A stretch of 64,000 nt of DNA from a virus (lineage: Duplodnaviria > Caudoviricetes): IMG/VR virus record IMGVR_UViG_3300026094_000002; one strand, 5' to 3'. The notes under the pieces were generated by a model. The model made no database searches, had not been told where the DNA came from, and saw only the letters and a program-made list of their open reading frames with translations. Each line of letters starts with the position of its first letter. The stretch's first letter is position 1. Positions 16,472-24,554 of this stretch are shown one piece after another. Position numbers and translations under genes: made by a program.

Positions 16472-17041
16472 TTAGTAGTCATTAAGACGGATATTAATAG
16501 CATCCCAATTGACAATACGCCAAAAATTATTGACATATTTCTTTTTGTCCGCACGATAATCTAATGCAAATGAATGTTCCCACATATCAAGCGGAAGCAA
16601 TACATCATTTCTGACAGCGTGATTTTTGATTGTTTTAATATCACCTGAGCGTGAAAGATACACCCATCCAGACCCTTGGATTGACATAGCAGTTTTAAGC
16701 CATTCTTCTTTGAAATCTTCAAAGCTTCCGTGTTTGTCATGGATTAGTGCCAATGCAGAACCAGTTGGTCGATTGTTTTTTCTGGGTGCCTGTAATTGTG
16801 GAAAGAAAAGATTATGCAGATAACTGCCAGCACGATTGAATTCAGGGTCACCTTCGCCAGCATTGTACTTTTTTGCATAGTTTTTGGCCAGTGTATCATA
16901 ATGATATCTTATGGTATCTTCACTCATTACCGGCTCAAGGGCATCCCTTTCATACGGCAGAGGTGCAGTATCAAGACGCTTTGGCTTCTCAACTGCCTCA
17001 ATTAAATTTAGTTCGTTACGGATATTGTTTGCTATATTCAC
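16472..17041 (-). CDS. sod: Fe/Mn superoxide dismutase
   Basis: LPY...ALEP, H, LHNLFF, GSGW, DMWEH motifs; GTG start after ATAAATA. Confidence 0.88.
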   Translation of the reverse strand: MNIANNIRNELNLIEAVEKPKRLDTAPLPYERDALEPVMSEDTIRYHYDTLAKNYAKKYNAGEGDPEFNRAGSYLHNLFFPQLQAPRKNNRPTGSALALIHDKHGSFEDFKEEWLKTAMSIQGSGWVYLSRSGDIKTIKNHAVRNDVLLPLDMWEHSFALDYRADKKKYVNNFWRIVNWDAINIRLNDY

Positions 17042-19336: not shown

Positions 19337-19378
19337 CCATTTATTTAAGTGTGACGGATATAAAATTAAACACTATAC

Positions 19379-20623: not shown

Positions 20624-20627
20624 TACT

Positions 20628-22193
20628 TTAATCAATTCTTGGCGGTACTGTAAATGTGTGTGCTGGTGCAGGTGATGGTACTTCCCACTCTAGACCGTCC
20701 GCCCCTTCCCACGCTCTTGCATCTGCATTATTTTTGCCTCGGATACATTGCCATACTATAGCAAGAAACAATAGTTGGGTAAGACCGAATCCAAATCCAC
20801 CTATTGAACTAATCATATTCCAATCTGCAAACTGAACAGAATAGTCTGGTATGCGTCTTGGCATTCCTGCTAATCCTAAAAAATGTTGAGGGAAGAACAG
20901 TACATTCACAAATATTGTGCTGAGCCAAAAGTGCCACTGACCCAGTCTTTCTGAATAACGAGTGCCCGACCACTTTGGGAGCCAGTAATATGCCGCCGCT
21001 AATATTGCGAATACCGCTCCAGTTACCAAGACATAGTGAAAGTGTGCTACAACGAAATAGGTATCATGATACTGAAAATCTGCAGGAGCAATTGCTAGCA
21101 TTAAGCCAGAGAATCCACCTATTGTAAACAAGAATACAAATGCAAGAGCGAATAGCATTGGTGTTTCAAATGTCATAGCACCACGCCACATTGTGGCAAC
21201 CCAATTAAAGACTTTCACTCCAGTGGGAACTGATATCAACATTGTGGCATACATGAAGAAAAGTGTTCCTGCGAGCGGCATTCCTACAGTAAACATATGA
21301 TGTGCCCACACAATAAATGACAGGAACGCAATACTAGCAGTAGCATAAACCATTGAACTATATCCAAACAGTGGCTTACGAGCAAATGTAGGCAATATTG
21401 TAGATATAATACCAAATGCTGGCAGTATCATAATATAGACTTCTGGATGACCAAAAAACCAAAATATATGCTGATAAAGAACTGGGTCACCACCACCGGC
21501 TGCAGAGAAAAATGAAGTACCAAAGTACTGGTCGGTTAATAGCATTGTCACAGCACCAGACAGCACAGGCATAACAGCAATCATAAGATATGCAGTTACC
21601 AACCAAGTCCATGTAAAGATAGGCATCTTCATGAGAGTCATTCCGGGTGCTCTCATGTTTAATATGGTAGCCACAATATTAATTGAACCCATAATTGATG
21701 AAATGCCTAAAATGTGTATTGAGAATATAACAAATGGAAATGCCATGCCTGTTTGTAACATAAGGGGAGGATACATTGTCCATCCTCCCGCAGGACCACC
21801 GCCGGGCATGAATAGTGTTGAAAGTAGTACGGCAAACGCAAATGGCATTAGCCAGAAACTCCAGTTATTCATCCGGGGTAGGGCCATATCAGGTGCCCCT
21901 ATTTGCATGGGTATCATCCAGTTTGCTAAGCCAGTAAATGCTGGCATTACCGCACCAAAAATCATCACAAGAGCGTGCATAGTGGTCATTTGATTATAGA
22001 ATAATGGATCAACCAATTGCATACCGGGCATAAAAAGTTCTGCTCTTATGACCATTGCCATTGCACCACCAACAAAGAACATCAACAAACTCCACAGTAG
22101 GTACATTGATCCAATCTCTTTGTGGTTTGTAGTGGTTAGCCATCGTTTAATGCCGGTCGGCTCTATGTGTTCTGGTTGTGCTACGGTATCCAT
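20628..22193 (-). CDS. coxA: cytochrome c oxidase subunit I, type A1 (aa3-like)
   Basis: 521 aa uninterrupted; [43 protein letters not shown]. Confidence 0.97.
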
Positions 22194-22196
22194 TGT

Positions 22197-22652
22197 TTAG
22201 ACTCCTACTGGTCCTATAAATTGTTTTAATTCTCGTGCAAGACTCTTCTGCTCGTCTGCGTCTAAAAATTCTGCAAATTCTACTTTATCACTTTTACAGT
22301 GTAAAAATAATCTTGTGTGTTTCCACCTTCTTGGTACATTTTCTAATATTACTTCGCACCATATTTTTTCAAAAGAAATAGAACTTGATTTTGTTTTTCT
22401 TCCTTTTTCTAATGTCACTGTTGTTCGGTCTATATGCAGTACATTTTTCTCAAAACTTTTTTCTGCTGAGTACCATAAACTAGCAGCCACAAGTAAAAAT
22501 TCTGCTCCAGCAAATGGCACTATTAACCACAAGCCCAATTGAAAAAAATATAAAGATATAGAGAATAAAACGATTCCTAACAATGCCAAAAATCTTATTG
22601 ACAACCGCCAATCAGATTGAAATGACGGAGAAATAACATAGGTTTTATTCAT
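22197..22652 (-). CDS. DUF2244-like membrane protein
   Basis: I.P..S..W, two TM helices with GLW.I.PFAG.E, EFAEFL..DE...LA.EL C-terminus. Confidence 0.75.
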   Translation of the reverse strand: MNKTYVISPSFQSDWRLSIRFLALLGIVLFSISLYFFQLGLWLIVPFAGAEFLLVAASLWYSAEKSFEKNVLHIDRTTVTLEKGRKTKSSSISFEKIWCEVILENVPRRWKHTRLFLHCKSDKVEFAEFLDADEQKSLARELKQFIGPVGV

Positions 22653-22715
22653 TACGAACTATTTAGACAATACCATTACTATATCCTAAAATAGAGAGGG
22701 AATAAATACCTCATA

Positions 22716-23375
22716 ATGCTTATTAAAGAATTATTTGAAGCAGACAGAACCTATTCTGGAGACCCACTTGAAAAAGGTGGCACATCTATTAAAGGACAAG
22801 GTGCTGCTCCAGTCATCAAAAATCTTGCTGGCAAGGGAATATTCCAAGGTAAAACAGTGCTTGATTATGGTGCCGGAAAGTATGGCAGAAATGCAGAAGC
22901 AATCAAAGCAGCCGGTGGAACTGTCTATGCCTATGACCCATTTCACGGCAGTGGCTCTGATGGTTGGAATAGTGTTGCAGGAACACTTCCAGATAATAAA
23001 TTTGACATTGCATTTACCAGTTATGTTTTAAATGTGGTTCCAGAAAAAACCGAAGACCAAATATTGCGTGATGTAGAATCTCGCTCTAATAATATTTTAC
23101 ACATTACAAGAAATATGGATATATTTCAATCAGTTAAGAAAGCATTAATAAGAAAGGATAGTACGGTTGGCAATTTCTTTTTAGAACAGTTTGCCAATGA
23201 ACAAGAACGCGAGGCATTTGAAGAAGGTACGCTTAATGATGAAACTATATTAGAGTTTTGCAAACACGGTGTCCAGACTTCACGTGGTTTTCAGCGAATA
23301 CCAGAACTTGAAAATAAGGGATATAATTTAAAACAAAATACAGTTGGTTATAAACTTTATACTAGAGGAATGTAA
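22716..23375 (+). CDS. SAM-dependent methyltransferase (possibly DNA adenine)
   Basis: VLDYGAGKYGRN motif I, YDPF, SYVLNVV motif-IV-like. Confidence 0.7.
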   Translation: MLIKELFEADRTYSGDPLEKGGTSIKGQGAAPVIKNLAGKGIFQGKTVLDYGAGKYGRNAEAIKAAGGTVYAYDPFHGSGSDGWNSVAGTLPDNKFDIAFTSYVLNVVPEKTEDQILRDVESRSNNILHITRNMDIFQSVKKALIRKDSTVGNFFLEQFANEQEREAFEEGTLNDETILEFCKHGVQTSRGFQRIPELENKGYNLKQNTVGYKLYTRGM

Positions 23376-23380
23376 ATAAA

Positions 23381-24550
23381 TTAGTAAATTTTGAGAAGAC
23401 TGTTTAATTCAGGATGAGAATCAACTAATTTTTCTTCACGAAATAAATCTATTCTTTTAATTTCAGATTTTAATTCATTAAAATAATCAAAATTAGATTC
23501 ACCATCATTCATAAATTTAATAATATTATTAATATCATCGGTATCGTGAGGTAACAAGGCTTCTTCAATTTTTTCTTTTATGTCTTGCGGCAGATACTTG
23601 ACACAAAATCGTTCTTCAACAATTAACATACTCCAATTAATATGCATTAGGGGATAATGTTCTTTCATCCATCTTATAATTTTTTTAAAGTCTAATATAT
23701 TAAAAACGCTGACAGTCATATTACATGATAATGAGATATTTGTATTTTTATTAGCCAACTGCTCAAATGCATCCAAGTTTTTAACTAATGTATTCCAATC
23801 AGATTTTGATCTTTCATATTCAAATTTTTCAAAGATATTATCTATACTAACCATTATATCAACACTTTTGAATTTTTTCCAACTTTCAATAATATCTTTA
23901 TTTGGTAATATTGTTCCATTAGTAACATAGTCTATTTCAATATTTGAAACATCGCTAGTATTTGAAAATTTTTCAAGTAGTTGAAAGTGCTGATTTATCA
24001 GGAACGGTTCACCACCATAAAAACTTATTTTGGATAATAATGGAAGGTAATTTTCTAAATCCTCCCAAAATACTTTTGATGTTATAGGCCATTGTCCTTT
24101 TTTAAGAATTTCAAATTCAAACGAACTGCGTTTTTCTTCATCAGAATGGGTTTTTAATTCATTTTTTGCCCAGATACTACTTGCCCACGGCCCACATATT
24201 CGACACCGCAAATTGCATATGTTTCCAAATGCAATTGATAAACTGCTAAATTGACTTTGAACATCACCATTAAAATCAGTTTCTTTTTGCCTCAAACTCA
24301 TAATACCATTATCTTCTTCTTGCCAGCATTGAGCACAGGAAATAGGTTTTTTATTGTTTGATAAATCAGAGCGTAATTTTTTTAGATGATTGCTATTATA
24401 AATCTCATAAAAAGAATTTTTATTAACATTAAATTCTAAATTGTTTTTATCTTTAAGCCTATCACCCCAAATACAACATGGTGCTACACTACCATCCGCA
24501 TTAATTTCTAAGTTTTTCCATGGCTTACTACAAAAAGTTTCAGACAACAT
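23381..24550 (-). CDS. radical SAM protein with SPASM/twitch-like domain
   Basis: CNLRCRIC, GGEPF, TNGT; N-terminal C..PW...G.V.PCC and C..CW..E. Confidence 0.88.
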   Translation of the reverse strand: MLSETFCSKPWKNLEINADGSVAPCCIWGDRLKDKNNLEFNVNKNSFYEIYNSNHLKKLRSDLSNNKKPISCAQCWQEEDNGIMSLRQKETDFNGDVQSQFSSLSIAFGNICNLRCRICGPWASSIWAKNELKTHSDEEKRSSFEFEILKKGQWPITSKVFWEDLENYLPLLSKISFYGGEPFLINQHFQLLEKFSNTSDVSNIEIDYVTNGTILPNKDIIESWKKFKSVDIMVSIDNIFEKFEYERSKSDWNTLVKNLDAFEQLANKNTNISLSCNMTVSVFNILDFKKIIRWMKEHYPLMHINWSMLIVEERFCVKYLPQDIKEKIEEALLPHDTDDINNIIKFMNDGESNFDYFNELKSEIKRIDLFREEKLVDSHPELNSLLKIY

Positions 24551-24554
24551 AATT

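Follow-up and report, generated by a model that had tools for sequence, protein, structure and literature searches.

A probable phage auxiliary metabolic gene for the catalytic subunit of cytochrome c oxidase, kept under strong selection beside a DUF2244 gene

We analysed a 64,000-nucleotide stretch of DNA (the window), which is the reverse strand of G000:C1:31021-95020 in a 194,522-bp IMG/VR virus record (Caudoviricetes, IMGVR_UViG_3300026094_000002), and found that it carries an intact coxA (ctaD) gene, coding for subunit I of an aa3-type cytochrome c oxidase. Judged from sequence and context, this is a well-supported case of a phage auxiliary metabolic gene, one that specifies the catalytic core of complex IV and is under strong selection; we are confident that the phage CoxA is genuine, selectively maintained and probably catalytically competent. 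The gene stands behind a DUF2244 gene in a two-gene unit, and we lean towards the view that its product would join host subunits in a hybrid phage-host oxidase. The features of the locus are the following.

20628..22193, minus strand: coxA/ctaD, A1-type haem-copper (aa3) cytochrome c oxidase subunit I, 521 aa (open frame, COX1, TIGR02891)
22197..22652, minus strand: gene for a DUF2244 membrane protein, 151 aa, first of the two-gene unit (PF10003)
22202..22206, minus strand: Shine-Dalgarno-like AGGAG, 8 nt before the coxA ATG, within the 3' end of the DUF2244 gene (sequence reading)
22660..22666, minus strand: CTAAATA promoter-like element, 7 nt before the DUF2244 ATG (motif enrichment)

A first-pass annotation, made from the DNA letters, had claimed an intact 521-aa A1-type subunit I at 20628-22193. 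The protein and the coordinates stand, but the strand needed correction, as the uninterrupted frame of 521 codons lies on the minus strand and the plus-strand reading is full of stops. The product matches Pfam COX1 over its full length (E 1e-160) and, over residues 18-519, exceeds the cut-off of the NCBIfam model TIGR02891 CtaD_CoxA (698.8 bits, cut-off 670.75); its scores fall far under the cut-offs of the QoxB (quinol oxidase), CyoB and ccoN (cbb3) models. Residues 16-519 align with the solved aa3 oxidases of a plant (7jro), Paracoccus (1ar1), Rhodobacter (1m56) and the bovine enzyme (1occ). All 18 of the functional residues checked (haem, CuB, Mg and proton channels) are present, and every motif named beforehand (haem and CuB histidines, tyrosine, D- and K-channel residues, arginine pair) could be located. 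The haem a ligands are His73 and His386, the haem a3 ligand is His384, and the CuB ligands are His249, His298 and His299; we take the Paracoccus equivalents to be H94 and H413, H411, and H276, H325 and H326, respectively. These six histidines do not vary among the phage copies or among 64 bacterial sequences compared. The FGHPEVY motif holds Glu251 and the cross-linked Tyr253, the mark of type A1; the D channel has Asn91, Asp102 and Asn109, the K channel Thr324 and Lys327, the Mg site His376 and Asp377, and the haem-propionate arginine pair is Arg446 and Arg447. Seventeen of the 18 columns are invariant throughout seven phage-type copies (where covered), two viral copies of a second lineage and the 64 bacterial sequences, the exception being His376 of the Mg site, replaced by Gln in 8 of the 64. 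Only four residues (I192, T411, N488, A511) are fixed in the phage clade yet absent from the bacterial sequences, and none of them is among the checked catalytic or channel residues.

The location of coxA in a phage genome is supported by several observations. The flanks are of phage type, as had been claimed: near coxA are a class-3 lipase gene (phrog_21992) and a gene for an endolysin-like cell-wall hydrolase, and the same window has genes for a phage glycosyltransferase (phrog_3408, E 7e-199) and for baseplate-wedge and tail-fibre proteins of T4-like kind. An AT-rich coxA, with a protein 89-93% identical, recurs in other assemblies (L002, a 59-kb IMG/VR contig; L005, L009, L016, P0004 and P0112), and L002 and L005 also hold a homologue of the neighbouring phage lipase (50-67% amino acid identity). 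Logan contigs from runs of three other studies span the coxA/DUF2244 and DUF2244/methyltransferase junctions; the lipase/coxA junction is spanned by a contig of a fourth run, possibly the source sample. The codon usage of coxA fits the phage. Its third-position GC content (GC3) is 0.356, where phage genes average 0.273 (sd 0.052) and Spiribacter coxA has 0.58, and its codon-usage log-likelihood difference is 0.165 (phage mean 0.182, sd 0.062); the AT bias noted in the first-pass annotation thus holds. The near-identity to a bacterial genome that would have pointed to contamination was not found, the nearest bacterial coxA being ~72% identical in DNA and 87-89% in protein, with different flanks.

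Among named cellular proteins, the CtaD of Spiribacter (87%) and that of Sediminicurvatus halobius (86%) come closest, and a metagenome contig of 64% GC that carries the full Spiribacter-type operon encodes a CoxA 89% identical to that of the phage. In a maximum-likelihood tree the seven phage-type CoxA form a single clade (support 100/100), nested in a clade with Spiribacter and Sediminicurvatus (96/94); sister placement to Spiribacter itself is weakly supported (85/44). Within the phage clade the dN/dS of coxA is 0.017-0.040 at a dS of 1.6-4 (Nei-Gojobori), with synonymous sites near saturation, and in comparison with Spiribacter these sites are saturated despite 86-89% protein identity. A viral clade and purifying selection, both suggested earlier as signs of function, are thus both apparent, and the low dN/dS together with the near-saturated synonymous sites excludes a recent neutral passenger. 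Ninety-six CoxA positions vary within the phage clade, most densely at both termini. Since the window and L002 share 92% of CoxA but only 50% of the lipase, the phages carrying the coxA of this clade appear to be old relatives.

The DUF2244 gene, on which the first-pass annotation was silent, ends with its stop 3 nt ahead of the coxA ATG. Its product matches PF10003 (E 6.8e-25, 87.9 bits, cut-off 27) and keeps the invariant columns G40, W42, P46, F47, G49, E51 and W98, which include the G-x-W...PF-x-G-x-E motif of the membrane hairpin. The family has been suggested to consist of two membrane helices and a bacterial PH-like domain (PMC2817789). The phage protein has 36% identity with the DUF2244 protein encoded first in the Spiribacter cox operon; among all loci fetched, its best bacterial matches are two Spiribacter-type loci, with which it has a C-terminal ARELxxxIGP motif in common. 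The Spiribacter operon has the order DUF2244-COX2-COX1-(38 aa)-COX3-DUF2909-SURF1-...-CtaA-CtaB. The two Spiribacter-type operons (L006 and L017) have the 38-aa open reading frame (ORF) between COX1 and COX3 and are without CtaG at the place that it occupies in most other gammaproteobacterial loci. Spiribacter and many of the metagenome loci have DUF2244 upstream of COX2; the phage and L016 have it immediately before coxA. The DUF2244 protein of L016 is 81% identical to the window copy (dN/dS 0.094). Eighty metagenome coxA loci served as a control, and in 79 of them, all but the phage-like L016, COX2, COX3 or CtaG stands next to coxA. In the 194.5-kb record, which CheckV rates as 56% complete, we did not find COX2, COX3, CtaG, CtaA, SURF1 or cytochrome b. 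The simplest history of this gene order would be the loss of coxB, also unremarked in the first-pass annotation, from between DUF2244 and coxA in both the window and L016.

A complex model of phage CoxA with phage DUF2244 gave an ipSAE of 0.75, against 0.00 for the best control. The ipSAE mark is reached by 58 of 80 solved complexes and by 2 of 110 mismatched pairs, counts that apply only approximately here because the model was built on our own alignments. The pLDDT of the partner does not fall below 73, and the runs share 70% or more of their contacts; the modelled interface sets the DUF2244 membrane hairpin (residues 11-66) against CoxA residues 99-108, 167-187, 202-220 and 239-246, a site that may overlap the face on which subunit III docks. 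No PDB chain matches DUF2244, so that the pass of the model is not recall of a solved complex. The model thus supports binding of DUF2244 to CoxA. As the phage kept only DUF2244 and subunit I, and as binding between them is predicted, this suggests that DUF2244 may be an overlooked assembly factor or subunit of aa3 oxidases.

The DUF2244-coxA unit also has putative expression signals of its own. The element ending 7 nt ahead of the DUF2244 ATG reads TCTAAATA, and NTAAATA heptamers are the most enriched words within 60 nt upstream of the phage's genes (fold enrichment of 19 for CTAAATA, 18 for ATAAATA and 16 for TAAATAC). NTAAATA lies within 80 nt of the start in 47 of 242 genes, at distances that fall into two groups, one of 5-8 nt and one of ~17-31 nt, the latter often with a Shine-Dalgarno sequence; the first group, about half of the motif-bearing genes, would imply near-leaderless messages. 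The motif also precedes the divergent methyltransferase, lipase, endolysin-like, superoxide dismutase (SOD)-like and one tail-fibre gene; examples in the window are at 22660-22666, 20624-20640 and 19337-19350. It resembles the T4 late promoter, which we take to be TATAAATA. We infer that NTAAATA is a phage promoter and, from the genes that share it, that DUF2244-coxA may be expressed late. Around the locus, sites resembling sigma-70 promoters or terminators are no commoner than in shuffled sequences. A search for RNA data sets containing the 4-kb stretch around the gene, or coxA by itself, listed none.

Relatives of the phage carry other respiratory genes, located as follows.

L005:2-1243, plus strand: cytochrome b, bc1 type, full-length (PF00033 and PF00032, Pfam)
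L003:642-6472 and L004:1-8794: respiratory gene row of the second viral CoxA lineage
L097:4753-7656: cox module
L097:9928-10365: plastocyanin-like gene (phrog_515)

The cytochrome b gene of L005 ends 10 nt ahead of coxA (L005:1254-2822) and occupies the place of DUF2244. L005 is a 4-kb fragment of a related phage (38% GC), with metallophosphatase and lipase homologues downstream, and its cytochrome b would give this group of phages a second respiratory core subunit. L003 and L004 represent a second, long-branch viral CoxA lineage, 72-74% identical to the window copy and 93% to each other, in which the order is aminotransferase, alternative oxidase (PF01786), a 356-aa ORF, ClpP-like, DUF454, coxB, coxA and ctaG. 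Downstream of ctaG, L003 has methyltransferases, and L004 has a 150-aa ORF, a peroxiredoxin and, ~5 kb on, a di-haem cytochrome c peroxidase. The L003 and L004 fragments also encode a phage dNMP kinase, a RuvC-like resolvase and an exonuclease, and hold homologues of four proteins of the phage studied here; as these include phrog_27048 and the endolysin-like genes beside coxA, the island is roughly syntenic. Two further viral contigs, L097 (134 kb, from IMG/VR, 37% GC) and L098 (38 kb), have the order coxB-ctaG-coxA with a CoxA 49% identical to that of the window, and in L097 the plastocyanin-like gene follows ~2 kb downstream; the module of L097 may be a third, independent viral one. The fragments of cox-bearing relatives have CheckV completeness values of 8-37%, implying genomes of ~200-360 kb. 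Pattern scans of 2.9 million IMG/VR contigs returned a mere handful of cox genes, which thus appear to recur in jumbo-phage-sized genomes though rare. No match to PF01654 (cytochrome bd subunit I) was obtained in the window's record or in five related viral records. One giant-virus contig (L099, IMGVR_UViG_GVMAG-S-1091232-121_000001), from a metagenome-assembled genome, was excluded: it has 27% GC and carries cox1, cox2 and a cytochrome b gene split by an intron, and so has the look of mitochondrial DNA binned together with a giant virus.

The record itself has a coding density of 94%, with 81% of genes on one strand, and three tRNA genes lie further along it than the coxA neighbourhood. Elsewhere it encodes a family-B DNA polymerase and a phage ATP-dependent protease; the polymerase is nearest to those of the Pseudomonas jumbo phages PA5oct and MIJ3 (48%), and Salicola phage SCTP-2 also matches. 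A scan of ten large ORFs identified no capsid, portal or terminase, which may sit in the missing part of the genome, and a search with Pfam Gp23 gave zero matches, controls included, and is hence uninformative. The window and the record disagree in eight single letters (at 1340, 3544, 3559, 28489, 28504, 44210, 50681 and 61166), none of them inside coxA or DUF2244. Radical SAM genes with PHROG matches are present in the window. One of them, a radical SAM/SPASM gene (23381-24550), is cleanly absent from one contig from a run of another study, which fuses window position 23362 to 24553 via 7 other letters; as that contig lacks exactly this gene, the gene is a presence/absence polymorphism among close relatives of the phage. 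The window also holds the following gene.

16472-17041, minus strand: Fe/Mn superoxide dismutase-like gene, divergent (Pfam)

It lies 3.6 kb from coxA, behind an NTAAATA motif. Its C-terminal domain is recognised by Pfam (E 3e-23), its N-terminal hairpin domain is matched only partly, and it scores well under the NCBIfam cut-offs.

We consider it reasonably probable that coxA is a phage metabolic gene yielding a hybrid phage-host aa3 oxidase, by the following course of events. An ancestor of this group of jumbo phages would have acquired the first part of an aa3-type cox operon (DUF2244-coxB-coxA-...) from a halophilic gammaproteobacterium like Spiribacter or Sediminicurvatus; coxB would then have been lost, and DUF2244 and coxA retained as a unit behind a phage NTAAATA promoter. 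During infection the phage would make subunit I, the bearer of haem a, haem a3-CuB and both proton channels, which would be inserted into the membrane by host YidC/Sec and loaded with host haem A and copper. The host would supply CtaA, CtaB, SURF1, copper chaperones, CoxB and CoxC, and the two-helix membrane hairpin of DUF2244 would bind CoxA, as a dedicated chaperone or small subunit. Phage CoxA could then join host CoxB and CoxC in a hybrid cytochrome c oxidase, which is plausible because CoxA is 86-89% identical to the subunit of the putative host. Such an enzyme would keep or raise terminal-oxidase capacity, sustaining proton motive force and ATP, holding the respiratory chain oxidised and lowering the formation of reactive oxygen species (ROS). 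The benefit would come when host gene expression is shut down, during the long cycle of a jumbo phage. The SOD-like neighbour and the ROS enzymes of L004 would fit the theme of less ROS.

Several points weigh against this reading. With the record ~56% complete, coxB, coxC and assembly genes could occupy the unsampled part, and the enzyme might therefore not be a hybrid. Subunit I alone would be of no use unless the host has CoxB and CoxC in excess or is still making them, and fast turnover of the bacterial subunit I, the premise of the analogy with psbA discussed below, is not established. The host assignment is based only on the phylogeny of CoxA and DUF2244 and on co-occurrence in one sample, and the promoter assignment only on motif enrichment. 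Finally, a GC3 of 0.356 puts coxA at the 92nd percentile of phage genes, so that its amelioration is slightly incomplete or the gene is constrained.

It is unlikely, but deserves some weight, that the oxidase is fully phage-encoded, the genes for CoxB, CoxC and assembly lying in the ~44% of the genome that the record does not cover. The incompleteness of the record allows for this, and the distant relatives L003, L004, L097 and L098 do carry coxB and ctaG beside coxA. Such a reading must nevertheless contend with the loss of coxB, specifically, from between DUF2244 and coxA in the window and L016, and with the absence of both coxB and coxC beside coxA in L002, L005, L009 and L016. There is also a small chance that the phage manipulates respiration rather than sustaining it, by titrating host CoxB/CoxC, haem A or copper, by altering oxygen or ROS, or by excluding superinfection, with oxidase activity being secondary. 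One might point here to the supply of just one subunit and to the ROS-handling genes close by (SOD-like in the window, peroxiredoxin and cytochrome c peroxidase in L004); however, a decoy has no need of the residues for oxygen reduction and proton pumping, which are all strictly conserved, and the scarcity of phage-specific CoxA residues, confined to four outside the checked catalytic and channel sites, also argues against it.

A neutral or decaying passenger, i.e., a host gene caught by chance and unused by the phage, is very improbable. Host DNA does accumulate in the variable islands of large phages, and the context upstream of coxA varies among relatives (DUF2244, cytochrome b or something else), but dN/dS is 0.02-0.04 among copies with nearly saturated synonymous sites, the catalytic residues are all kept in seven copies, CoxA variation is concentrated at the two termini, CoxA is much better conserved than adjoining phage genes, and the DUF2244-coxA unit has its own phage-type promoter motif and ribosome-binding site. 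Last, a bacterial coxA fragment misjoined into the phage contig, which the assembly of the record from a metagenome, the GC content of coxA (0.424, genome mean 0.367) and the contaminating oxidase genes in many GenBank 'phage' records might bring to mind, is for practical purposes refuted by AT-rich copies with phage neighbours in at least four other assemblies, junctions bridged by contigs from other studies, phage-like codon usage, the gap between DNA and protein identity to the nearest bacterial gene, flanks without bacterial genes and tight spacing to the adjacent genes (3 nt and 4 nt).

The hybrid oxidase that we favour can be set beside several known systems. Spiribacter and Sediminicurvatus CtaD resemble phage CoxA in sequence (86-89% amino acid identity, the same ligand and channel residues, the common 96/94 clade) and in having DUF2244 upstream; the phage differs in that coxB, coxC, SURF1, ctaA and ctaB are missing from the record, in its GC3 (0.36 vs 0.58) and in its promoter motif. 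The classic core-subunit case is cyanophage psbA, which encodes D1 of photosystem II, a host-derived core subunit in a large myovirus-type phage that assembles with host partners; D1 turns over rapidly, and phage psbA is expressed and incorporated. Phage coxA likewise specifies a catalytic membrane subunit, host-derived and highly conserved, of an energy complex with several subunits; it is the only cox subunit found in the ~56% complete record, and its assembly with host partners is presumed here. It differs in serving respiration and not photosynthesis, in having DUF2244 travel along, and in being known from sequence only. The first-pass annotation had proposed just such a respiratory analogue of psbA: that the gene is phage-borne, belongs to a viral clade and is under purifying selection was borne out, and the analogy itself, with its benefit to proton motive force, is a hypothesis.

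The alternative oxidase PTOX (PF01786) is a di-iron quinol oxidase formed by a single protein, which pumps no protons and needs no host partners. Cyanophage PTOX is, like coxA, a phage-borne terminal oxidase passing electrons to oxygen, and a PF01786 gene stands beside coxB-coxA-ctaG in L003. A myovirus of oxygen-minimum zones carries a NOD-like norB, a lone catalytic subunit of the haem-copper superfamily on a T4-like scaffold (Gazitua et al. 2021, PMC8115048); it was judged functional from its residues and from purifying selection, comes from one scaffold and shares 57-62% of its residues with cellular proteins (PMC8115048). Viral norB belongs to the nitric oxide reductase/dismutase branch, whereas phage coxA codes for an oxygen reductase of type A1 and has a viral clade of several members. 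The amoC gene of large freshwater phages (155-338 kb) groups with the copy of the predicted host, and its transcription has been examined in situ (bioRxiv 10.64898/2026.06.18.733297). Like coxA, amoC of these phages and of marine Thaumarchaeota viruses codes for one membrane subunit of an energy enzyme; the enzyme and the pathway differ.

Two surveys of 2026 list coxA among automatically called viral auxiliary metabolic genes (bioRxiv 10.64898/2026.04.10.717577, which also lists coxB, and PMC13149639), at list level only, without genome context, phylogeny, residue or selection analysis. We found no analysis of a phage A-type oxidase subunit in the literature, and PHROGs has no family for CoxA and none for DUF2244. 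A tblastn search of 50,697 GenBank phage records gave 13 hits and no credible coxA, in agreement with the earlier remark that its author knew of no characterised cultured phage with this gene. Among the rejected hits, one of two Acinetobacter 'phage' contigs has cyoABCDE beside ribosomal protein genes and is bacterial, the record of Mycolicibacterium phage J1 is an UNVERIFIED 25-kb 'Microviridae' entry with a fragmented gene, and Flavobacterium phage 6H offers just a 55-aa piece; the others are unannotated records and fragments named after well-studied hosts.

More tentatively, and with doubts that outweigh our confidence, one might speculate that an exchangeable 'respiratory-chain kit' is present in jumbo phages whose hosts are aerobic Proteobacteria, some of them halophilic, and that it replaces core subunits of host complexes III and IV during infection, with DUF2244 as an unrecognised subunit-I-binding assembly factor or small subunit of aa3 oxidases. 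The components found across relatives are CoxA with DUF2244, the cytochrome b of complex III, CoxB with CtaG, the alternative oxidase and ROS-detoxifying enzymes. If it exists, such a kit would be the respiratory counterpart of the photosynthesis gene set of cyanophages. The DUF2244 family is widespread and heads many proteobacterial cox operons; the predicted binding to CoxA is a first functional lead, and its role is open to study in ordinary model bacteria. Phage takeover of energy metabolism is well documented for photosynthesis and hardly so for aerobic respiration, from which most heterotrophic hosts draw the bulk of their energy. The coxA phage offers a concrete system for asking if terminal-oxidase capacity limits phage production, and estimates of virus-driven oxygen consumption in saline lakes and soils may be affected.

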